From a virus (Duplodnaviria; Heunggongvirae; Uroviricota; Caudoviricetes), in IMG/VR virus record IMGVR_UViG_3300045988_134234, positions 1-55,008 of that record: DNA of 55,008 nt. One strand, 5' to 3'. A program made the position numbers and the translations under genes. Below are positions 3,211 through 45,462 of this stretch, in pieces. The notes below the pieces were generated by a model that saw only the letters and a program-made list of their open reading frames with translations, did not search any database and had not been told where the DNA came from. Numbering within the stretch: the first letter of the stretch is position 1; each line of letters starts with the position of its first letter.

Positions 3211-3229
3211 GCCCCGGCATGACCGGGGC
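3211..3229 (-). terminator. GC-rich hairpin downstream of Rha-like gene
   Basis: GCCCCGG-catga-CCGGGGC stem-loop; weak T tract; a similar hairpin follows the paralogous module at about 43979..43997. Confidence 0.3.
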
Positions 3230-3236
3230 AAATCTA

Positions 3237-4163
3237 TTAACTAACAATCCAGTCGGTCGCTGCTACATCTTCTGGCTGTAAATCAATCGCACAGATCTTG
3301 CCGTCGCGAATGGTGCGCCAGTTTTTCCGTGAGCCTCTTTCGGGCCATACCCAGACACTTTCAGGCCAGGATGCTCGACGGCATACGGTTGCATACCCTG
3401 TTTTAATCTTCTCTCTGGCGGTATGCAACGACAGGTTTGCCTTTGGACTTTCAGGCACAGGATGGTGAATGGCCTGAAATAGCCCCATCCTGGGATGATA
3501 CCAGCGTTTGTTACGTGGTTCTGCCTCCGACATAACCTGCTTAAAGGCTTTCCGGAAGGGGGCCAGGGCCACAATGGAGCGTCTCGCGAGCAAACCATCG
3601 GGAGTTAAAAACTCATGTGTATCGGTGGGAATCCGATACGCATTGACCAGGTTACGGCATTTGGCTTCAGTCAGGCCGCATTTCGCCGCTAACTGGCGGT
3701 AGCCAATGTAGCCTTCCGGAATATTGCCTTTCTTTATTTGCTCGACGGTTTCAGCGACTTTGGACACTTGTGCCGATACTTCGGCTACCTGGGCATTAAC
3801 GGCGTTGATCCGGCGTTCATGCTCAAGATGCATTTGCGCCATTTCGGCCAGGATTTCGGCTTTTGATTTTAACGGTCCCCTGGCATTCTCCAGTTCGCGC
3901 CAGCGGTCCACCAGCCGGGCGGTGAATTCGGGAGAGAGCTGCGCGACGACAATGATGCTATCGCGCTTGCCTTGCTCGCCTTCGAAGACGTAATAGCTCG
4001 CCGGGCGGCCTGCGGTGGGCTTTTCCTCAATTTGAGGAAAAGATATTACGCCCCGTTCCGCCAAGTGTTCAATGGTGCGTTTAACGTTATCAGGGCGCTT
4101 TCCTACCAGTTCCGCGATCTCAATGCTGGTCATTGTCGCTTTTTGAGAGATGGACAGATTCAT
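3237..4163 (-). CDS. Rha-family phage regulatory/antirepressor-like protein with DUF2829-like C-terminal domain
   Basis: N-terminus IEIAELVGKRPDNVKRTIEHL matches recalled Rha signature (IAE.FGK.H.NV.R.I..L); C-terminal 65 aa (CRRASW...VWVWPE...ATDWIVS) resembles the separate 70-aa ORF at 44006..44218. Confidence 0.6.
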   Translation of the reverse strand: MNLSISQKATMTSIEIAELVGKRPDNVKRTIEHLAERGVISFPQIEEKPTAGRPASYYVFEGEQGKRDSIIVVAQLSPEFTARLVDRWRELENARGPLKSKAEILAEMAQMHLEHERRINAVNAQVAEVSAQVSKVAETVEQIKKGNIPEGYIGYRQLAAKCGLTEAKCRNLVNAYRIPTDTHEFLTPDGLLARRSIVALAPFRKAFKQVMSEAEPRNKRWYHPRMGLFQAIHHPVPESPKANLSLHTAREKIKTGYATVCRRASWPESVWVWPERGSRKNWRTIRDGKICAIDLQPEDVAATDWIVS

Positions 4164-4379: not shown

Positions 4380-4640
4380 TTGGCAGCCTCCTTTGACTAA
4401 GTTAAGGAGCTACCGCGTGAGGTTCCAATCTCAATGGCGGTAGCACTGACTGGGTTGGAACTACCGGCGTCAAAGGGAACCGGCCTGCCTTTCGGCAGCC
4501 CAGCCAGCACTACCATTGATCTCTGAGCTAAACGCTACGTATGGCTGTGCGATGGCGTGACACAAAAAAAGACGCTTTCGGCGTCTGTGTCGCCTTTGAC
4601 ATTATCCGGGGTTCCAATCCCGGCACCCGTTTTTCTAAGG
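4380..4640 (-). ncRNA. structured leader / candidate antisense-regulatory RNA (C4-like hypothesis)
   Basis: About 260 nt untranslated leader with repeated GATTGGAACC elements and a complementary GTTCCAACC element, multiple hairpins, and an anti-SD hairpin (CTCCTT...AAGGAG) sequestering the RBS of the 71-aa gene. Confidence 0.25.
4562..4586 (-). terminator. rho-independent terminator (minus strand)
   Basis: GACGC-cgaaa-GCGTC hairpin followed by T7 on minus strand. Confidence 0.55.
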
Positions 4641-4690
4641 TGCCGTAGAAATATACCTCACGATAATGCCAGGGCGCAACAGTCAGTATT

Positions 4691-30741: not shown

Positions 30742-30817
30742 TGGTGGCCCCTACCGGACTTGAACCGGTGACCGTGCGATTATGAGTCGCCCGCTCTAAC
30801 CACTGAGCTAAGGGGCC
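30742..30817 (-). tRNA. tRNA anticodon CAU (Met or Ile2 via lysidine)
   Basis: RC reads GGCCCCTTAGCTCAGTGGTTAGAGC...CTCATAA...GGTTCAAGTCC...GGGGCCACCA; resembles recalled E. coli ileX/ileY-type tRNA. Confidence 0.8.
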
Positions 30818-30826
30818 AGATTACTG

Positions 30827-30955
30827 TTAATTACGCTTACGCTTTTTGCCAGAACCGCGTAAGGCTTTTGCCGCTTGCTCTACCCCGTATGCAACCACCA
30901 GCAGAAACAATAATGTCCACTCCGGGTTTTTATCGGCAAACGCCCAAAAATCCAT
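30827..30955 (-). CDS. possible small membrane peptide (~42 aa)
   Basis: MDFWAFADKNPEWTLLFLLVVAYG...; AGGTGG RBS-like upstream; approximate coordinates. Confidence 0.3.
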   Translation of the reverse strand: MDFWAFADKNPEWTLLFLLVVAYGVEQAAKALRGSGKKRKRN

Positions 30956-31133
30956 CACTTGCAGCCACCTTTTAAGACAAAACGCCATTGCTGTTAGGTT
31001 GCGGTGCCGGGTGCCTCCCGGTGACGTTAACCAGTTAACAATTAACGCCGGATCACTTATGGATTCTCGTTACGCCAGTAAAAAGACCACCTTTACTGTT
31101 TTAACTGTTCCGCGTGCGCTTAGCCGCATTCAC

Positions 31134-31246
31134 CGCAATGGTAAGAGCATTTGGCTGACTGGGCGGCGATGACGCCTGTACGCATTTGGTGATCCGGTTC
31201 TGCTTCCGGCATTCGCTTAATTAGCCAAATACTCTTAACGTTGCGA
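31134..31246. repeat. long-hairpin family unit B (abuts 3' end of tRNA-Ser)
   Basis: CGCAATGGTAAGAGCATTT ... AAATACTCTTAACGTTGCG. Confidence 0.45.
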
Positions 31247-31333
31247 TGGCGGAGAGTAATGGAATCGAACCATCATCGCTTGCGCGACGGGACGGTTTTC
31301 AAGACCGCTTGAGCACCATGCTCCCTACTCTCC
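31247..31333 (-). tRNA. tRNA-Ser (anticodon UGA), class II with long variable arm
   Basis: RC reads GGAGAGT...GCGGTCTTGAAAACCGT (anticodon TGA)...long variable arm...GGTTCGATTCC...ACTCTCCGCCA. Confidence 0.65.
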
Positions 31334-31483
31334 AGTGATTGTGGTGGTCGGTACTGATCTCCGACTGCGCCTCTTTTTTTCATAGCGCATAAGGCCGGTC
31401 AGTGCGCTTGATGACTGAGGCATCGATATTTACTACGCCGCCTCGTTGCCATAGGGCGGACTTGCGCGCCAGCAACGCGCATT

Positions 31484-31573
31484 CACCACAACGGAAAGAG
31501 CATTTATGGCTCGCATCGCGGGAAAAAGCCCACGGTAGAGAGTCGAACTCTACAAATGCTCTTACCTGTTGTG
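31484..31573. repeat. long-hairpin family unit C with internal T-loop-like hairpin
   Basis: CACCACAACGGAAAGAGCATTT ... AAATGCTCTTACCTGTTGTG; internal GTAGAG-TTCGACT-CTCTAC on minus strand. Confidence 0.45.
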
Positions 31574-31698
31574 TTGTGATGACCGGTGCTGATCTCCGGC
31601 TTGCGGTAATTTCAGACTCTCACGGGCGTTTAATTGCCCCGCCGAACAGCTCTTTTCCGCAATAGCTGCAATGTCTTTCGCGCATCAGCCTGCGCATT

Positions 31699-31788
31699 CA
31701 TCACAACGGTAAGGGTACTTCGTAGGGATTCGAACCCTCTGCCAAGCTCGGCGATCTCCGACGTCGCAAAATACCCTTACCTGTTGTG
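31699..31788. repeat. long-hairpin family unit D with internal T-arm-like GGGTTCGAATCCC (abuts tRNA-Thr)
   Basis: CATCACAACGGTAAGGGTA ... TACCCTTACCTGTTGTG; tRNA-like but lacks D-arm and CCA. Confidence 0.45.
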
Positions 31789-31789
31789 C

Positions 31790-31865
31790 TGGTGCCGATT
31801 AACGGACTCGAACCGCTGACATCCTGCTTACAAGGCAGGCGCTCTACCAACTGAGCTAAACCGGC
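31790..31865 (-). tRNA. tRNA-Thr (anticodon UGU)
   Basis: RC reads GCCGGTTTAGCTCAGTTGGTAGAGC GCCTGCCTTGTAAGCAGG...GGTTCGAGTCC...AATCGGCACCA. Confidence 0.8.
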
Positions 31866-31867
31866 AT

Positions 31868-31943
31868 TGGCGATGGTGGATGGATTTGAACCATCGACCC
31901 GTTGATTAACAGTCAACCGCTCTAACCGCTGAGCTACACCATC
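31868..31943 (-). tRNA. tRNA-Asn (anticodon GUU)
   Basis: RC reads GATGGTGTAGCTCAGCGGTTAGAGC GGTTGACTGTTAATCAACG...GGTTCAAATCC...CACCATCGCCA. Confidence 0.8.
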
Positions 31944-36499: not shown

Positions 36500-39400
36500 T
36501 TAGGCCGCATCGGCGATTATTTTACGCAGTTCATCTACCGAGTAACGCGTAGATACCATCCATGCCGGACGGTCAAAGTTCACATCAGCAACCGGGTTTG
36601 CTTCAAAATTCCAGAAACGCCCGCCAATCTTCTTAATCGCGTCTTTGGCGTTCCGTATTGTCGAGGAACCAGGTTGGTCGGCAATGAGATAAACCGCGCC
36701 AACGTCCTCGCTGACGCTCCACCAGCGCCCGCGAACACGCGCCTTAGCGCGAATCGGCTTATCATTAACCACAATGATATAGTCATCATTCGCCGCTTCA
36801 TCAGCTCTGGCTTCTGCCACTGCCGCCTGCTCTTCTCTTTTGCTTTCAGCCTGTTCAAGCCTTTCCGCGATCTCTGATTCGGTGGCTCCGCCGTTTTTCA
36901 GCGATACATAGTCTTGCCACGTTGCTGATTTGAGCGCATCCGGCAACTCATTCACATAGTCACCGTCTTTCAACTCACGGGCGCGGCGGGTAGCCATTTC
37001 TACCAGGCGATTAACAGAAACAGCATCAGCAAAATCGTCCTTACTAATGTGTTTTTCATCAAATGCATTGATGACAGCCCCCACCTTAATCCACTGTGCT
37101 GCCGGTGATTCCAGGGGGTTATCAGCCTGGACAATGGCGAGTTTCGCTCCATCTACCCCATTATTCGCCAACTGTTCCAGTGCCGCCCATCCATCTGCAT
37201 CACTGAGTGATTTATATTGCTCAAACAATGCATCGCGCCAGGCCACCAGCGCAGAACGTGTTTTTTCGATCTTCGTCTTAATTTTCGCGATCTTGACCTG
37301 ATTAAACATCCGTTCAATATCATCGATATTGCTAAAGGCTTTCATCCTGCCCTTGAATAAACGGTATGCCAGCACGGTCCTCCAGAATGATTCCAGACCT
37401 TCTCCGGACGGTTTGCGGAACAAGCTAAGAATATCTTCAGAAGTGACTTTATTAAGCGAACGACCTGACAGACCACGCCCAGCCATCCAGTTTTCGAACT
37501 CCTGGGCAACATCATCCATCGTTGCCTGTGCGCCCCATGCCTGCATTCCCTGGATGTAATCATACCCATACAATGCCTGGAGGAATCCCTCACCGTCCAC
37601 GATATTCAGCGGGTTATCACTGGCTTGTATTTTTGCCACTTCACGCTTCAGCGCCTCATCGTTGCCATCTGGATATATCCATCGTTCAGGTGCTATATCC
37701 GATGCTCGCCCGATTTTTTGGCCTATCACGCCATCATAGGCCGATGACAGCGCGATCTGACCATCATCTGTGCGATATGCCCAGTATTTAATAGCTGACC
37801 CACCGCCCCATGCATTACCAGGTTTACCAGCAATAACATTCATTACCCCATTGCGAATAGCATCATAGAACTGATCGCGAGTAAGTATTGTTGATAGCTG
37901 GTGGCACTGAACACCACGCGCAGCCGTTGCGCGCGATTCAGCTACCCCCTCTTCAAAAGTTACCGCTTCAATCACAGAGTCAAACGGCAATGTAACGATT
38001 GACCCCGGTGATCGAGCGTAACGACTTGCTCTATCCAGCCAGGCGATACGGCAGAGGTATTGTGCTTTTTCACCGTCAATTTTTTCCACCCGGACAATCG
38101 CTGTTGTTTCGCGATCATCAATGACTGCACGGTAATAACTACCTTTATGCAACAGGATATTCTTGTCAGTGCGCATATATTCCTGTGGGTTCTGAATAAC
38201 ATCGATACTGATATCCAGCACACCAGACTTAATAGCGCGCTCCACATCACCACGAGAGCGTTTCATTATGGTATCCGCGTCTTTTGCCCTGGTGATCGCA
38301 AACCGCAGCACCCGCGCACGTTTTCTGTAGCTACTCAACTGCTCAAGCGCGAATTTTTGCCCATTCCTGTTCGTACCCGCTTTTATCAGGTCGTCAAGAT
38401 TTCGCTGGTAATACTCTATCTGTTCCATCGCGCTTTTCAGTTCTGTCTCCATCATGCCGATATCTTTTCCAGCGGCGTTTGCCGCTTTCAGGTAGATATC
38501 GAGAGCATTGTTGGCCTCGCGCTGTGCTTTCAGTTTCAGACGTTCTTCACGCTCTTGCGCCTGGCGAGCCATGATTGCGCGGCGTTCTTCCGGGTTTGCC
38601 GCCAGCATAATGGCGCGTTCATCAGCATCATCCGCATCACCATTGGCGATCTCTGACATGTCGGAGGTCATCACCATCTTGATCCAGTCTTTCTTACGTT
38701 TCAGCGTATCCAGACGGAAGTCGTCGAATGTGCCTTTGCCACAATAGTAGTGAACATTGACCTTCTCTTGCGGTGAACCTACGCGCGCACCGCGCCCATT
38801 TCGTTGGTCGATACTGGCTGGTGTCCAGGGTAGTGTCAGGTGGTGGATATCGGTTGTCCCGATATGCAGGTTAATACCTACTTCAGCCTTCTTGTTACAG
38901 ATAATGATGCGCGTGCGCCCTTCGTTATAGTCGGCGGCAATGCCTTCCATACCCTCAAGGCCAGCATCATTTTTAGCTGAGAGATAATCCTCATATTGGG
39001 CAAGTTTGCTGTAGTAGGTTTCCCATGCCCCTTCTTTGTATTCACCGTTTTTATTCGGAGTAGGTTCAGTCGGCTTATTCACCTTCTTCAGCTTGATGCC
39101 GCCAGCCTGGCTAACGGTCGTCGCATTGATAATGCCTATCTCCTGCTCCGGCATTTGCAGTGCACTGGCGATAATACGGCGCAGCTTCTGGTGCTGGGCT
39201 TTTTCATCAATGAAGACAATTTGTTTACCGTTCTTCAGACCTTCACGAAGGTTTTCGATCAGCGCGGCATACTTCGGCGGGATGGGGTGTGATACCTGCT
39301 GCAGATCAATCCCGGCGGCAGCAATGGCCTTCAGTATTTCAGCTTCCAGTTCAATGCTGGCACGTATTTCAACATGCGCCGGATGTTCACTAAAGGTGGT

Positions 39401-42400
39401 CTTCACTACCTTACTGGTGCGCGTACTAACCAGCCCACCAGCGCCGTCTTCTTCGGCCTCGTCTGCATCATCTGCCACTTTACCGCCAGCTACTTTTGGC
39501 AGGGCATCAGCAATAGCTTTTACCTTGTCTGCAAGCTCAACGGGGAACTGGAATGTAATCGCACTGGCATACAGATCCGGATCTATAGCAACCTTATCCA
39601 TGTCGCGGATGATGGAGAAGATGAAATCATCCGGTTTTTCGTTTGTGATATGCCCGTTTTCATCAACCGTCAGCGCATCTTTACTACTTAACTCCTGTGC
39701 ACGCTTACGAAGCTCTTCATAAGCAGCCTCCTGCTCCCCTGTCATCGGGATCTGCAAGGTATTCTCGACAATATCAGGGATTTTAACCGTCGCCCCGACG
39801 TCCGCAGCAGTCTTCAGAGTAGTCCAGCGATGGAAAATACCACGCAGGCCATCAAGGTTCTGGAAGCCAACCAGCCCCTGCTTCTCTTCCACTTCCCCGG
39901 AAATTTTCTGGACCTGAACTGTGGCTGTTTTACCAAACACACGAACGAAATCATCAGGCGTAATGATGCCCATGCGCATCCACTCTTCCTGCGGAATGAC
40001 AGTAGACAGCATGTTGAAGGCATCAATCGGACTGTTCACCAGCGGTGTTGCCGTCAGCATCACTACACCACGCCCGTTGTTGCGTTTCATCATGTACGCA
40101 GCTTTTACAGCCATGTCGCGGGCCATCTTGGATACTGCCGGGTTAGGCAAATATGCCAGTTGTCCCGCTTCACGCCCGGCATTAAAGGAGTTGCGGTAGT
40201 TATGCCCCTCGTCGGCAATCACGCTATCGAAGTTCATATCCTCAAAGTACGGGATATTCTGCTTCTTCGTTGTACCGGTATTCGCGGCCTGATCCTTAAT
40301 CTTGTTCTTCTTCTGCGCATCACGGTGTTTACCAGACGCCAGGTCAAGACGCCCCATTTCCACAGCATTAAAGACAGCTTGCTGTGAGTTCTCCTCGATG
40401 GTTTTTTCTCGTAGCGGGATAGACGCGAATTGTTCTTTTGTCATGATGACCGTTCGCCAATTTGACGACGGGATCATGTTCATGCGCTGAACGATAACGG
40501 CGCTGGCGGACTCTTTCACAACATTTCTGGTAAGAGGCTGCCCGTTACTGTCGAGGCGTGGTTCGCCATTTTCATCAAGCACCGGCGCGGTCAGAATATT
40601 TCCGCTGTCATCACGAACTTCATCCAGACCGATAAACATCATATTGGCGAAGGCATCAGCACTGTAGAAGCTCTGTGCCTCGTGATACCAGTTCTGATAA
40701 ACCGCCTTCGGAACAACAATACACGTGCGTTTAGTACGACCTGTTTCGAAGTTATACGCCTCAAGCGCAAGCGCGGTCGTGGTTTTACCCAGCCCGGTAC
40801 CAAATCCCATGATGCCGCGCCCATCTTCTGACAAGCGACGAACTTCTTCATTCTGATAAGTCAGAGGAATGCGCTTTCCACTAATCCCTTCCAGGCCAAG
40901 CGGTGCGTTAGAGTGCGTGAACGGAATGAAGCCATTGAATGCGTCGTTATAGTCACGGGCTATCTGATCCGCCTGCGGGTGGGTGCGTAACCAGTCGTTA
41001 AAGCTAACTTCCAGTTGAGCAATTTTATCCAGGTACTCGTTAGCGTTCTGCCCACGCGGTTTAACACCGTTCAGGTAGTTTTCTAACTGGTTCAGGAAGC
41101 CGTCTTTATTGTTGGCCTTCTTGAACTCATTCCCGTTTTTGCCGTTTACGGTTCGTAGCTGATAGCCGGTAAATACCCCGTCCTTACCTTCGTAATCGTC
41201 CGGAGATACCAGAATGCCATCGACGACCTTCAGATCAGGTTCAGTGTACTTAAACTCGTCATAGCCCTGCTCTGCCAGGAACTCTTTTATCAAGCGGCGA
41301 TCCAGCCAGCGGGCGTTCAGATTAACGGTGACTTTATTTAGTGGCGTGAAAATGCGTTTCTCTTCGATTTTCGCCAACTGACGCTCAAAGTTCGCTTTCT
41401 GCTCACCTGTTGATGCATCACGCCAGCCCACCAGCAATGCTGTTTTGGTTACAATATCGCCGCTGGTGGCGCGGTCCATCGGCAGCAGGCAGCCATACCC
41501 ATCAATAGCGATATCATCAAATTTCGCCAGGTATTCAAGGGCCGCGTCGTCGTCCTCTGGCAGTTCACCAGCAAACGCCTCACGAAAGTCGCCCAGCGTT
41601 ATAGGATTAAGGGCTACATCACTGAAAAGATGTGCTATCACTTGTTCCGGACGTGTAAAGTCAATACCGGCAGCACCATCCGTTACATCAAGTCGCCCTG
41701 CCAGAAGGTCAGAAGTGGAACCATCCTGTTTCACATTGCCAGTGAACGTCATCCAGTTTTTAGCGCCAGCTTCAGCAAGCCCATTCAGCTTAATCGCGTG
41801 CGGTGGTCCATACTTCGCAACTTCTGCTGCCGCCAGGCGGGATGCATCTGCCAGTTTGTCATCAACGTTCACCCCCAGGTTACGCAAATCAAGTGCCTTG
41901 TTGATCAACTGCCCTATCAACGCACCGCGCATAACGCGCTCCCTGTCTTTTTCTCGCTGTTTGCCAGCAAAGCGAATCATTGCTGCCACTTCATCACTGA
42001 CAACCGATGGATAGTCGGACGCGATCGCCGATATCTGGTCCCATGACAAAGCCAGAATCCCGTTTGTTGACTGGAACGCGATCTGCAGATCGCCAAACGT
42101 CGAAACACCATATCGACTTACATCAAGCGCGGAGGATTTGGTTGTCGTGTCCTTAACCCATTTCAGGCCATCAAACTCATGCCAGATACCGCCTACAAGA
42201 CGCTTATCCCCTACTTTTGCGCCCTGCCATGCCTGGGTAGTTACTCCGAGCAAATCCCAATTAATACGGCTTTCAAAGCGGCGTGATAACGCGGTTTTCA
42301 TCGACTCATTGGATACACGACCGTCCTTTTTCACCACCAGGGTATTGCGGAAGCTGGTGCGTTCCATGTCGCCGTAAACAAATCGCTTCCCTTCGGTTGT

Positions 42401-43351
42401 AAACCATTTCCCTTTGAGGAAGGTATCCCAAAGGACGTTTGCCGATTTGAGCGTTGCATCATCCGTGTCGGGGATCATCTCCAGGAAGGTTTCCGGGTGT
42501 TTACGCAATACCCATACGTCCACCACGGTATCTGTACCGGATTCGCTGAACGTACCAGAAGGCATACGATGCGCGCCCAAAAATTCCGCTTTACGGCTGA
42601 CTTTATCGCGCAATTTTTTGTATTTCGTACCATCGGTCATGCCATTCGGCACCACCAATACAATTAGTCCACCAGGCTTAACCTTGTCGATCGTGCGCAG
42701 CACAAAATAATTGCCAACGTTCTTCTCGTTTGCATATGCCGGATCAAGCCCGGCGACGCCGGAACGCCCTTCACCAAACGGTACGTTACCAACTGCGTGG
42801 TCATACATTGCATCTTTCGCCGCCAGCGCCTCAAACGCCCCGATATTCACATCATCTTCCGGGTGCAAAAGCTGGTTTATTCGACCGGAGATCGGAGACA
42901 GTTCGGCGCTGGTCATTATCATGCCCTGCCGTTTTGTCTCCTGGAAAATACCTGTGCCTGCTGACGGTTCCAGTACGTGACCGCTATCAATACCGTAGTC
43001 GCCGAAGAGATCCCATATACCTTCTGCCATAAACTGTGGCGTATAGTATTCGTATTGGCTGCCCTCACCATCTGTCAGGCCGCCTTCACCGGTATACCCG
43101 GCAAGAATCTGACGCTGTTCGTCAGTTAATTTCGCCCCATCGAAGCCAGGCGGAAGGGAATTAAGAAGATTTACTGCGGCGTTGTTTGCTGCCCGGCGTG
43201 TTTTCTGAATACTGACGCCATCGACTTTCTTAACGCCAAAGGTCACTACAGCTCGCGGTTTATGCAACCGACTAACAATTTCAATCAGCGCCCCAATGCT
43301 GGTGGCCTGGCTAATTGAATCAATTATTTTGTCCAAAGGAAGCCCCCTCAA
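36500..43351 (-). CDS. darB: giant methyltransferase-helicase (P1 DarB-like antirestriction protein)
   Basis: 2283 aa; N6-MTase motifs EPSAGTGIF and NVPFGE; SF2 helicase motifs GFGTGLGKTT, DEGHNYRN, TATPLVNS, QRNGRGARVG; size close to recalled P1 DarB (about 2255 aa). Confidence 0.7.
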   Translation of the reverse strand: MRGLPLDKIIDSISQATSIGALIEIVSRLHKPRAVVTFGVKKVDGVSIQKTRRAANNAAVNLLNSLPPGFDGAKLTDEQRQILAGYTGEGGLTDGEGSQYEYYTPQFMAEGIWDLFGDYGIDSGHVLEPSAGTGIFQETKRQGMIMTSAELSPISGRINQLLHPEDDVNIGAFEALAAKDAMYDHAVGNVPFGEGRSGVAGLDPAYANEKNVGNYFVLRTIDKVKPGGLIVLVVPNGMTDGTKYKKLRDKVSRKAEFLGAHRMPSGTFSESGTDTVVDVWVLRKHPETFLEMIPDTDDATLKSANVLWDTFLKGKWFTTEGKRFVYGDMERTSFRNTLVVKKDGRVSNESMKTALSRRFESRINWDLLGVTTQAWQGAKVGDKRLVGGIWHEFDGLKWVKDTTTKSSALDVSRYGVSTFGDLQIAFQSTNGILALSWDQISAIASDYPSVVSDEVAAMIRFAGKQREKDRERVMRGALIGQLINKALDLRNLGVNVDDKLADASRLAAAEVAKYGPPHAIKLNGLAEAGAKNWMTFTGNVKQDGSTSDLLAGRLDVTDGAAGIDFTRPEQVIAHLFSDVALNPITLGDFREAFAGELPEDDDAALEYLAKFDDIAIDGYGCLLPMDRATSGDIVTKTALLVGWRDASTGEQKANFERQLAKIEEKRIFTPLNKVTVNLNARWLDRRLIKEFLAEQGYDEFKYTEPDLKVVDGILVSPDDYEGKDGVFTGYQLRTVNGKNGNEFKKANNKDGFLNQLENYLNGVKPRGQNANEYLDKIAQLEVSFNDWLRTHPQADQIARDYNDAFNGFIPFTHSNAPLGLEGISGKRIPLTYQNEEVRRLSEDGRGIMGFGTGLGKTTTALALEAYNFETGRTKRTCIVVPKAVYQNWYHEAQSFYSADAFANMMFIGLDEVRDDSGNILTAPVLDENGEPRLDSNGQPLTRNVVKESASAVIVQRMNMIPSSNWRTVIMTKEQFASIPLREKTIEENSQQAVFNAVEMGRLDLASGKHRDAQKKNKIKDQAANTGTTKKQNIPYFEDMNFDSVIADEGHNYRNSFNAGREAGQLAYLPNPAVSKMARDMAVKAAYMMKRNNGRGVVMLTATPLVNSPIDAFNMLSTVIPQEEWMRMGIITPDDFVRVFGKTATVQVQKISGEVEEKQGLVGFQNLDGLRGIFHRWTTLKTAADVGATVKIPDIVENTLQIPMTGEQEAAYEELRKRAQELSSKDALTVDENGHITNEKPDDFIFSIIRDMDKVAIDPDLYASAITFQFPVELADKVKAIADALPKVAGGKVADDADEAEEDGAGGLVSTRTSKVVKTTFSEHPAHVEIRASIELEAEILKAIAAAGIDLQQVSHPIPPKYAALIENLREGLKNGKQIVFIDEKAQHQKLRRIIASALQMPEQEIGIINATTVSQAGGIKLKKVNKPTEPTPNKNGEYKEGAWETYYSKLAQYEDYLSAKNDAGLEGMEGIAADYNEGRTRIIICNKKAEVGINLHIGTTDIHHLTLPWTPASIDQRNGRGARVGSPQEKVNVHYYCGKGTFDDFRLDTLKRKKDWIKMVMTSDMSEIANGDADDADERAIMLAANPEERRAIMARQAQEREERLKLKAQREANNALDIYLKAANAAGKDIGMMETELKSAMEQIEYYQRNLDDLIKAGTNRNGQKFALEQLSSYRKRARVLRFAITRAKDADTIMKRSRGDVERAIKSGVLDISIDVIQNPQEYMRTDKNILLHKGSYYRAVIDDRETTAIVRVEKIDGEKAQYLCRIAWLDRASRYARSPGSIVTLPFDSVIEAVTFEEGVAESRATAARGVQCHQLSTILTRDQFYDAIRNGVMNVIAGKPGNAWGGGSAIKYWAYRTDDGQIALSSAYDGVIGQKIGRASDIAPERWIYPDGNDEALKREVAKIQASDNPLNIVDGEGFLQALYGYDYIQGMQAWGAQATMDDVAQEFENWMAGRGLSGRSLNKVTSEDILSLFRKPSGEGLESFWRTVLAYRLFKGRMKAFSNIDDIERMFNQVKIAKIKTKIEKTRSALVAWRDALFEQYKSLSDADGWAALEQLANNGVDGAKLAIVQADNPLESPAAQWIKVGAVINAFDEKHISKDDFADAVSVNRLVEMATRRARELKDGDYVNELPDALKSATWQDYVSLKNGGATESEIAERLEQAESKREEQAAVAEARADEAANDDYIIVVNDKPIRAKARVRGRWWSVSEDVGAVYLIADQPGSSTIRNAKDAIKKIGGRFWNFEANPVADVNFDRPAWMVSTRYSVDELRKIIADAA

Positions 43352-43488: not shown

Positions 43489-43974
43489 ATGGCAAACATT
43501 GAACCTCGCTGGCTTATTGAGGCCCGTAAAAATATTGGAGTCACCGAAATAAAAGGAGCGAAACACAATCCAGAGATCGTTCAGTTCTGGCGGGATATTA
43601 AGCGCAGCGGAATTAAAGACGACGAAACGCCGTGGTGCGCTGCATTTGTTGGTGCAATGCTGGAACGTGTAGGTATCCGCTCAACAAGATTTGAGTCGGC
43701 AAAATCCTATCTGGATTGGGGCGAGAAATTAGATACACCGGCATACGGATGTATCGTTGTATTTACTCGCGCAGGCGGTGGGCATGTAGGCTTTGTTGTC
43801 GGACACCGCGCCAATGGCGATCTGCTTGTCTTGGGTGGGAACCAGGGGGATGCTGTTAATATTCGCGCATTCCCAACATCAAGAGTGTCTGGCTATCGCT
43901 GGCCTGCTGGCGAACCACGCAATACAGCTCTGTTACCAGTCGGAGACGCAGCAACCTCAACTAATGAGGCATAA
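43489..43974 (+). CDS. NlpC/P60- or CHAP-like peptidase family protein
   Basis: Conserved Cys (TPWCAAFVG) and His (GGGHVGFVVG) spacing typical of papain-like cell-wall hydrolases. Confidence 0.5.
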   Translation: MANIEPRWLIEARKNIGVTEIKGAKHNPEIVQFWRDIKRSGIKDDETPWCAAFVGAMLERVGIRSTRFESAKSYLDWGEKLDTPAYGCIVVFTRAGGGHVGFVVGHRANGDLLVLGGNQGDAVNIRAFPTSRVSGYRWPAGEPRNTALLPVGDAATSTNEA

Positions 43975-43978
43975 AAAA

Positions 43979-43997
43979 GCCCCGGCCAGGCCGGGGC
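43979..43997. terminator. GC-rich hairpin between convergent genes
   Basis: GCCCCGG-ccagg-CCGGGGC; A6/T6 on one side. Confidence 0.45.
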
Positions 43998-44005
43998 ATC
44001 ACACT

Positions 44006-44218
44006 TCAAGTTACGATCCAATCATTACCGACTGCATCCGCCGTCGATAAATCGACTTCCCGGATCTGGTATCCATTGATACAAAACCATCCAGTAGTAG
44101 AGCTATTATCAGGCCAGACCCATACACCAACACTCCATGCTTTACGGCGGCACACTTCAGCCTGTCCTTCCCTGATTTTTTTTACCGCCTGCATGATGTC
44201 CATCACTCGCCTCCCCAA
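44006..44218 (-). CDS. DUF2829-like small protein (separate ORF; fused to Rha-like gene in the first module)
   Basis: AVKKIREGQAEVCRRKAW...VWVWP...NDWIVT parallels C-terminus of 3237..4163 product; overlaps upstream ORF by 16 nt in a different frame. Confidence 0.4.
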   Translation of the reverse strand: MGRRVMDIMQAVKKIREGQAEVCRRKAWSVGVWVWPDNSSTTGWFCINGYQIREVDLSTADAVGNDWIVT

Positions 44219-44910
44219 CCGATTACCTGGAATTGCCCCATCCTTGGGTGATACCAGCGTTTTCCTCGGTGTTCAGCCTCCGACATCATCAGGGTAAAGG
44301 CATTCATGAAGGGAGATAAGGCCACAATAGTACGACGCGACAATACCCCCTCTGGCGTCAAAAACTCATGCGTATCTGTGGGGATCCGGTAAGCGTTGAC
44401 CAGGTTGCGGCATTTGGCTTCAGTCAGGCCGCATTTCGCCGCCAACTGGCGATAGCCAATGTAGCCTTCTGGTATGTTGCCTTTCTTGATCTGCTCGACG
44501 GTTTCAGCGACCTGGCTAACCTTTGACTCAACAGCATGAAGCCGCTTTTGCTGCTGAACTGCATTCGCAGCCATTGCAGCGATCATCTCTATTTCGGTCA
44601 ACGGCTGGCGTACTTGTTCTTCCAGTTCGCGCCAGCGGTCCACCAGCCGGGCGGTGAATTCGGGAGAGAGCTGCGCGACGACGATAATGCTATCGCGCTT
44701 GCCTTGCTCGCCTTCGAAGACGTAAGCCTCAACACTACGTCGTAGTCCTAAGTTATTGATTTTTTCGAAAACCTCAATTTGAGGACGAACAATAACGCCA
44801 CCTTTGGCTAATGTCTCAATAGTGCGTTTCACATTGTCATGACGTTTTCCCACCAGCTCCGCGATCTCAATGCTGGTCATTGATGGCTTTTCGAGAATGC
44901 AGATATCCAT
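44203..44910 (-). CDS. Rha-family regulatory/antirepressor-like protein (paralog of 3237..4163)
   Basis: IEIAELVGKRHDNVKRTIETL; long stretches identical to the first module. Confidence 0.6.
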   Translation of the reverse strand: MDICILEKPSMTSIEIAELVGKRHDNVKRTIETLAKGGVIVRPQIEVFEKINNLGLRRSVEAYVFEGEQGKRDSIIVVAQLSPEFTARLVDRWRELEEQVRQPLTEIEMIAAMAANAVQQQKRLHAVESKVSQVAETVEQIKKGNIPEGYIGYRQLAAKCGLTEAKCRNLVNAYRIPTDTHEFLTPEGVLSRRTIVALSPFMNAFTLMMSEAEHRGKRWYHPRMGQFQVIGWGGE

Positions 44911-45134
44911 CAGTGAGCCTCCGCAATGCCGGGATTGGTAATATTGCGATACCAGGGATTGGTGTTTGGTTGTGGGGAAGTAGAGAAACGACCAGTGAGA
45001 ACGCCATACTGATCAGGGATCAGAGAACGGGCTTCTTTTTCAGTTGCGGCAATTGCGAAGTGATCGCAGTGTTTTTGCAGGGAGTGAAAACGCCAGATGA
45101 ATTCTGGACGTGAGCAAGGATTGGCATTAACCAT
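44910..45134 (-). CDS. small protein (paralog of 4163..4378)
   Basis: EFIWRFHSLQKH...AIAATEKEARS. Confidence 0.5.
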   Translation of the reverse strand: MVNANPCSRPEFIWRFHSLQKHCDHFAIAATEKEARSLIPDQYGVLTGRFSTSPQPNTNPWYRNITNPGIAEAH

Positions 45135-45159: not shown

Positions 45160-45360
45160 CAACCTGCGACCCGCTGTCAAACAGGTGGCAGGACGTGACA
45201 GGGTTGACAGACTGGCACTTACGAAACCAGCAGGCCGAAGCCTCCCCATCACGCCCCACCATAATTCGGGCGTAACGTGGTTTTACGGACACAAAAATAC
45301 CGCAATATCGGAAATGTGCGGTTGTCCGCGTAAGTATTCAGGCTGTCAAACCTGGTCGCA
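45160..45360. repeat. TGTCAAAC / GTTGACAG short repeats in leader region
   Basis: CGCTGTCAAACAGG, GGGTTGACAGACTGG, GGCTGTCAAACCTGG: two direct copies plus one complementary copy. Confidence 0.4.
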
Positions 45361-45462
45361 GAATTTGCTACGACGGCATGAATATAAGCCTGAACATTAG
45401 AAAGATCAACAGAATTTTTATCAAATGCTGTTTTTTAGTGACAATGTAAATCATACATTCTT

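Follow-up and report, generated by a model that had tools for sequence, protein, structure and literature searches.

The 55,008-nucleotide stretch of DNA analysed here (the window; IMG/VR record IMGVR_UViG_3300045988_134234) contains two genes for Rha-like proteins. One of them runs on into a small C-terminal domain, the other is followed by a separate small open reading frame, which is homologous to that domain. This raises the question whether the two arrangements represent a natural variation between a fused gene and a pair of genes, or whether one of the copies was broken by a frameshift. It must also be asked what the small domain, for which the initial annotation proposed a resemblance to DUF2829 (Tad2) proteins, might do in the company of a putative antirepressor.

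Two immI-type operons in a D6-like phage-plasmid

The window is 90-92% identical in DNA sequence to Escherichia phage D6 and has the same gene order. It is a D6-like phage-plasmid of the P1 family with two paralogous immI-type operons, in the following called module 1 and module 2; P1 itself is a plasmid-prophage relative of the element. The order is the same in both modules: c4 antisense RNA, icd, Rha-like putative antirepressor and a module of about 65 residues. Both operons lie on the minus strand, and each is closed by a GC-rich hairpin. The features are listed in the direction of transcription, with the similarity of the small domain to Tad2 being a prediction discussed below.

Features of module 2:
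45335..45387 (-): a1/b1 target sites of the c4 RNA; RF03163, 55.2 bits (gathering score 46.7)
45181..45266 (-): c4 antisense RNA; RF01695, 69.6 bits (gathering score 45)
44910..45134 (-): icd-like gene; D6_19; phrog_1426; its stop overlaps the ant start (TGATG)
44203..44910 (-): Rha-like putative antirepressor, 235 aa, without the extra domain; PF09669; D6_18 'putative anti-repressor'
44210..44216 (-): Shine-Dalgarno sequence GGGGAGG, six bases before the ATG, read from the sequence
44006..44203 (-): stand-alone gene of the predicted mini Tad2-like protein, 65 aa plus stop, last cistron; D6 orf17 homologue; phrog_7385, E 3.7e-47
43979..43997 (-): GC-rich hairpin and T-run directly 3' of the small gene; terminator used tail-to-tail with the CHAP gene

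Features of module 1:
4433..4520 (-): c4 antisense RNA; RF01695, 77.1 bits
4163..4378 (-): icd-like gene; D6_83 homologue; PHROG match
3237..4163 (-): fused gene, 308 aa, with Rha-like wHTH, middle region, linker and predicted mini Tad2-like domain; D6 orf82 homologue
3435..3467 (-): Pro-rich linker HHPVPESPKAN, residues 233-243 (11 residues)
3237..3434 (-): predicted mini Tad2-like domain, residues 244-308 plus stop; phrog_7385, E 1e-13; phrog_63 positions 380-431
3211..3229 (-): hairpin GCCCCGG-TCATG-CCGGGGC 3' of the fused gene, homologous to the module-2 terminator

Both icd homologues, which are labelled Icd-like in D6 and by PGAP, match phrog_1426 with E values of about 1e-39 to 1e-41, and a TGATG junction joins icd to ant in both modules. 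The Pfam profile PF09669 (Phage_pRha) scores 36.7 bits with the module-2 protein and 30.6 bits with the fused protein, above the gathering score of 29.9 in both cases. We call these proteins putative antirepressors from their operon position alone.

We know of no Tad2-like module in the immI operon of P1 (c4 - icd - ant1/ant2). The P1 operon has in common with the operons described here the c4 RNA and its target sites, icd, and a coupled regulator gene downstream, but in the window the ant gene belongs to the Rha family (PF09669) and not to the P1 Ant1/2 type, and the genome has two copies of the operon. Regulators of the Rha/Roi type (Roi of HK97 and of VT2-Sakai, P42 of APSE) likewise have a Rha wHTH at the N-terminus, followed by the conserved middle region; the nucleotide identity to them, 75-78%, is confined to a part of the Rha-like gene and stops short of the region of the small domain. 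An earlier paper on D6-like plasmids describes the second c4-icd region, but not the small domain (PMC6799933).

Some observations concern the surroundings of the operons. Just upstream of the module-1 c4 RNA there is a match to the isrK-like Hfq-binding sRNA (RF01394, 62.7 bits; 4565-4643, minus strand), whereas in module 2 the match at 45335-45387 is to the c4-a1b1 element, thus the leader RNAs of the two operons differ. Module 2 is flanked by a gene for a 2283-aa DarB-like methyltransferase/helicase (36500-43351, minus strand) and by the gene of a CHAP-domain peptidoglycan hydrolase (43489-43974, plus strand). Three tRNA genes lie at 30745-31943 (minus strand).

The small gene of module 2

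The open reading frame originally delimited for the small gene was 44006..44218 (minus strand), encoding 70 aa from a TTG codon and overlapping the Rha-like reading frame (44203..44910, minus strand, 235 aa) by 16 nt. That module 2 has a separate reading frame for the small domain was correct, but the length and the overlap have to be revised, as the real start is most likely the ATG at 44203-44201 and not the TTG at 44218. The ATG is preceded by the Shine-Dalgarno sequence listed above (junction GGGGAGG-CGAGTG-ATG, GGAGG core at 44214-44210), which is kept in 21/21 related sequences, and its A is the last base of the TGA stop codon of the Rha-like gene (TGATG), thus the true overlap would be 1 nt. 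Translation from the ATG yields 65 aa, in agreement with the annotation of D6_17 in phage D6. In 17 of the 21 related sequences an in-frame TGA stands between the TTG and the ATG, which makes a TTG start impossible there, so the 70-aa version cannot be the conserved product. The Shine-Dalgarno site and the TGATG together make up a standard translational-coupling junction leading from the antirepressor to the small gene.

The fused gene of module 1

The 308-aa protein encoded by 3237..4163 (minus strand) ends with ...CRRASWPESVWVWPE...ATDWIVS, and it does run on, as had been described, into a C-terminal domain of about 65 aa (residues 244-308). The linker of 11 residues stands in place of the stop codon, Shine-Dalgarno and start codon found at the module-2 junction. 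We also looked at whether the domain could be made from an internal start in the fused gene, but there is no in-frame ATG, merely a weak AAGG 11 nt before a TTG, and this candidate is unconvincing.

Several variants of the fused gene deserve mention. In plasmid pEC7-3 (L054, 616-1614) a 332-aa fused protein has an ORF6N N-terminal domain replacing the Rha wHTH, with the middle region, the linker and the Tad2-like C-terminus unchanged, that is, domain shuffling took place around a constant C-terminal half. In the IMG/VR loci L036, L038, L039 and L040 a C5-to-C6 run at about 2875-2880 (equivalent to about 3553-3557 in the window) causes a +1 frameshift in the module-1 Rha-like gene, and the same frameshift was found in L037 and L047. 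The frameshifted loci keep a 120-aa reading frame with the Tad2-like domain; the change can be a real variant or a homopolymer read error. At L048 973-1914, L049 988-1914 and L053 688-1614, which correspond to 3237-4163 of the window, the fused gene is intact (308/313 aa) but RefSeq/PGAP treats it as a pseudogene, described as 'incomplete; partial in the middle of a contig; missing C-terminus'. Because the PGAP pseudogene stops short of the linker, many plasmid records have no annotation for the Tad2-like domain.

Distribution of the two arrangements

Phage D6 (MF356679) has direct orthologues with 90-94% identity and with the same split and fused states: orf82 is fused (313 aa), orf18 and orf17 (65 aa) are separate. 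In D6 orf17 is annotated as 'hypothetical protein' and orf82 as 'putative anti-repressor', and a Tad2-like label is absent. The junction regions matched 111 plasmids for module 2 and 106 for module 1, mostly non-mobilizable plasmids of about 90 kb from E. coli, Salmonella and Shigella. We sampled 45 loci from IMG/VR, 20 of the module-2 type and 25 of the module-1 type. All 20 module-2-type loci have the stand-alone reading frame, which is intact with 65 aa in 19. An intact 308/313-aa fusion is present in 17 of the 25 module-1-type loci; among the other eight, six are frameshifted or interrupted by a stop codon (several with the C5-to-C6 run), and the rest are truncated where their contigs end. 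The fused protein is matched over its full length by more than 110 protein clusters of 301-314 aa.

An exhaustive profile search of 1.84 billion protein representatives found only 7 relatives, which shows that the sub-family is narrow and does not allow a deep alignment. In tblastn searches of 50,697 phage records with the 65-aa domain D6 was the only match, word-index protein searches with the domain found close relatives only, a scan of genome contigs for the domain found nothing, and NCBIfam has no model for it. Two of the distant relatives are stand-alone proteins: P0005 (96 aa) from a Raoultella plasmid, and P0006 (68 aa), the distant homologue loci being L050 4001-4291 (96 aa) and L051 4001-4207 (68 aa). 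They are located on other phage-plasmid-like contigs of about 90 kb, which also carry genes for partition (ParM/StbA) and for tail proteins (Big_2/PAAR); upstream of each there is a gap of about 320 nt, and neither adjoins a Rha-like gene.

Relationship of the small domain to Tad2

Tad2 is a homotetramer, which sequesters cADPR-type or cyclic-nucleotide immune signals and thereby blocks Thoeris, CBASS or Pycsar. The proposed similarity to this family (DUF2829) is borne out as remote homology and fold similarity, although it stays below the Pfam cut-off. The profile PF11195 matches the free protein over its full length (1-64 vs. 1-72/73 of the profile) with 16.7 bits and E 0.011, under the gathering score of 25 bits; five of six family members match at E<=1, the best at 2.5e-5, and the fused protein gave no match to this profile. 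When the alignment of the family (A3) was compared by hhalign with SPO1 Tad2, ModTad2 and SptTad2, 62 columns aligned end to end with an E/P value of 3.8e-4 but a probability of only 36%, and all the links to Tad2 at the sequence level are thus sub-threshold. A profile search of the PDB sequences failed to reach Tad2; the Tad2 sequences in the PDB were retrieved with a consensus probe, which served for retrieval only.

Structure prediction agrees with this relationship. From the single 65-aa sequence AF2 produced no usable model (pLDDT 58.7). When it was given an alignment of 12 sequences, the best model had a pLDDT of 85.7 (the other four 55-63) and the predicted topology alpha1-beta1-beta2-beta3-beta4-alpha-beta5. 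In a Foldseek search of the PDB with this model ranks 1-9 were all occupied by chains of SPO1 Tad2 (prob 0.94-0.99, TM 0.56-0.62), and the next match had a prob of 0.09. The top matches in BFVD were annotated Tad2-like/DUF2829 proteins, including forms of 65-72 aa and multi-domain proteins. Taken at the level of remote homology and predicted fold, the small domain thus appears to be a trimmed relative of Tad2/DUF2829.

It is interesting to compare the module with the described Tad2 proteins (SPO1 Gp34.65; ModTad2; HgmTad2/AcrIIA7). They share the N-terminal helix, the antiparallel sheet, the short helix and the last strand, as well as the motifs A-x6-G...R-x-x-W and D-x4-DW-x-I/V, and all are small and phage-encoded. 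On the other hand, the module has 65 aa compared to the 89 aa of Tad2, it lacks the beta2-beta3 loop and the alpha2 dimer interface, its invariant C-R-R and its W-x-W-P motif are particular to it, it is found within or joined to an antirepressor gene that the c4 RNA controls, and it is known from its sequence and predicted structure.

The original description as small-molecule-binding needs correction. The main ligand contacts of SPO1 Tad2 are W25, N26, W73 and D79, and an extended beta2-beta3 loop with helix alpha2 forms the V-shaped dimer (10.1101/2023.05.01.538930). In the hhalign alignment W25 corresponds to the invariant W23 and D79 to the invariant D56 of the module, whereas N26 is replaced by S/P and W73 by V/I, and the beta2-beta3 loop is reduced to 8 residues (PDNSSTTG / PERGSRKN) from about 25 in SPO1 Tad2. 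Because of the reduced alpha2 loop and the replacement of N26 and W73, tetramerisation and ligand binding may be lost. Known Tad2 homologues have varied pockets. Ligand binding by the module seems plausible from the retained W25 and D79 equivalents, but it is not established, as the module lacks the alpha2 loop and two of the four main Tad2 contacts.

Possible functions of the module

In P1 the c4 RNA blocks translation of icd. If the operons of the window are regulated like P1 immI, the c4 RNA would block translation of icd and hence, via TGATG coupling, of everything downstream. Because both the icd-to-ant and, in module 2, the ant-to-small-gene junction are coupled in this way, the module would be made only together with the antirepressor, and it would appear with it on infection or on commitment to the lytic cycle. 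The fused protein of module 1 would fix the ratio of the small domain to the antirepressor strictly at 1:1, and in module 2 this ratio would be loose.

Our working view, which is tentative and to which we would give somewhat less than an even chance, is that the module is an oligomerising, nucleotide-ligand-binding unit of the Tad2 type delivered with the antirepressor, acting as an anti-defence sponge at the onset of the lytic cycle, as a partner domain of the antirepressor, or as both. It is also possible, although we consider it rather unlikely, that the module has kept the shape of Tad2 but no longer binds ligands, and serves instead in protein-protein contacts (oligomerisation, or binding of a C1-type repressor), the free form being a subunit or modulator of Ant. 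The fusion itself (by Rosetta-stone logic) and the strict coupling to Ant are in line with such a role. So are the absence of the alpha2 loop and of counterparts to N26 and W73, the inclusion of the module in the phrog_63 'Ant' profile, and the fact that it has stayed with an unchanged middle region where ORF6N has replaced the DNA-binding domain at the N-terminus. However, the best-conserved motifs of the module (R-x-x-W and D-x4-DW) are those common to Tad2 and include two ligand contacts, and the distant P0005 and P0006 proteins are encoded without a Rha-like neighbour.

Selection on the fused and the free copy

The fused domain is under purifying selection: its pN/pS ratio is 0.17, and the variable sites are distributed 12/10/36 by codon position. 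The free reading frame (44006-44203 of the window; loci L003-L021; 9 haplotypes) has a pN/pS of 0.82 and an even spread of variable sites (11/8/5). Its flanks are constrained, with pN/pS values of 0.07-0.10 for the C-terminal half of the Rha-like gene and 0.07 for the downstream CHAP gene, and the difference between the free reading frame and the adjacent 65 codons is significant (Fisher p = 0.0025). Among the D6-type haplotypes there are 0 synonymous and 1-5 nonsynonymous differences. Seven of the 15 variable residues are at positions 19-29, beside the conserved W23, in a segment corresponding to the pocket-forming beta1-beta2 loop of Tad2.

With 9 haplotypes, this pattern fits relaxed constraint and diversifying selection equally. 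The free copy, lacking coding constraint, could be decaying. In its extreme form this would mean that the stand-alone copy is a functionless remnant drifting neutrally and that only the fused copy works, which we regard as unlikely. The even spread of the changes next to well-conserved flanks and the existence of frameshifted singletons speak for a remnant. Against it, the reading frame, the Shine-Dalgarno sequence and the start codon are intact in 19 of the 20 loci and in D6, which is weak evidence at such shallow divergence, the core motifs are untouched, and the concentration of nonsynonymous changes near W23 fits diversifying selection equally well.

Origin of the split and fused arrangements

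The two Rha-like proteins are 70% identical over their N-terminal 232 residues (E 1e-112). The 65-aa protein aligns with residues 244-308 of the fused protein without a gap at 40% identity (E 5e-17, far beyond chance). At the nucleotide level the junctions show gaps of 10 and 6 nt within a stretch that is about 43% identical; there is no single indel. Two blocks of the Rha-like genes are about 97% identical (3897-3986 vs. 44629-44718, and about 3600-3776 vs. about 44380-44513), whereas elsewhere the modules are 45-70% identical; gene conversion between these two paralogous operons, which share a replicon, is thus a probable source of the blocks. A diverged, gapped junction beside blocks of 97% identity shows that the modules are paralogues of long standing in which gene conversion has acted locally, and a single recent indel does not account for it.

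That the split arose by an error of sequencing, or by a frameshift that recently broke a once-fused gene and left a pseudogene, can be excluded. The frames at the junction do differ by a net 16 nt (1 modulo 3), and a few truncated variants of the small reading frame (P0002, P0003, P0007) exist in the databases. But the same split, with the same Shine-Dalgarno sequence and TGATG, recurs in about 110 plasmids, in D6 and in each of the 20 module-2-type loci from IMG/VR; the diverged junction has gaps of 10 and 6 nt and a proper ribosome-binding site; and the 40% identity of the domains is that of old paralogues. Programmed -1 ribosomal frameshifting in the 16-nt overlap, yielding a fused Rha-Tad2-like protein from module 2, can practically be dismissed: relative to the Rha-like gene the small reading frame is shifted by -1, and in the window no stop codon interrupts it ahead of the ATG, but the overlap contains no X XXY YYZ slippery heptamer, in 17 of the 21 sequences a TGA one codon before the ATG would terminate a shifted ribosome, and the canonical Shine-Dalgarno sequence and ATG suffice for expression.

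The first of the two explanations originally offered, a natural variation between a fused and a split form, is thus upheld, each state being fixed in its own paralogous lineage, as seen across D6, about 100 plasmids, the 45 loci from IMG/VR and over 110 clusters of proteins. We consider it quite likely that this is a case of natural gene fusion or fission, in which both states are old and are stably inherited within their lineages. Most Tad2 proteins are stand-alone, and so are the distant relatives P0005 and P0006, which favours the fusion as the derived state; the stand-alone form is thus probably ancestral.

Significance for D6-like phage-plasmids

Phage-plasmids of the D6 type occur commonly in E. 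coli, Salmonella and Shigella; the collections searched contained about 100 complete ones. Their lysis-lysogeny switch has been little studied. What is new in this work is that both antirepressor operons end in a previously unannotated module, which appears to be a trimmed relative of Tad2; the literature searched contained no paper tying DUF2829/Tad2 to antirepressors or to D6. It must be noted that RefSeq/PGAP often calls the fused gene a pseudogene although it is intact, so a survey that relies on the RefSeq/PGAP proteins will miss the domain.

A more speculative idea, which we think very unlikely to be correct, is that the module acts as a sensor: it would bind a second messenger of host immunity, either a cyclic nucleotide or an isomer of cADPR as produced by Thoeris, CBASS or Pycsar, and so switch on the antirepressor to which it is attached or with which it is partnered. 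If this were true, the plasmid prophage would induce and escape upon the abortive-infection alarm of its host, the fused and free forms would represent two immI operons with different input wiring, and the free copy would owe its nonsynonymous changes near W23 to a retuning of ligand specificity. The module-1 fusion links a fold known for the sequestration of bacterial immune signals to a prophage decision circuit. If the module does bind ligands, it would be either an anti-defence factor timed by the c4/Ant control or a signal input to induction of the prophage.
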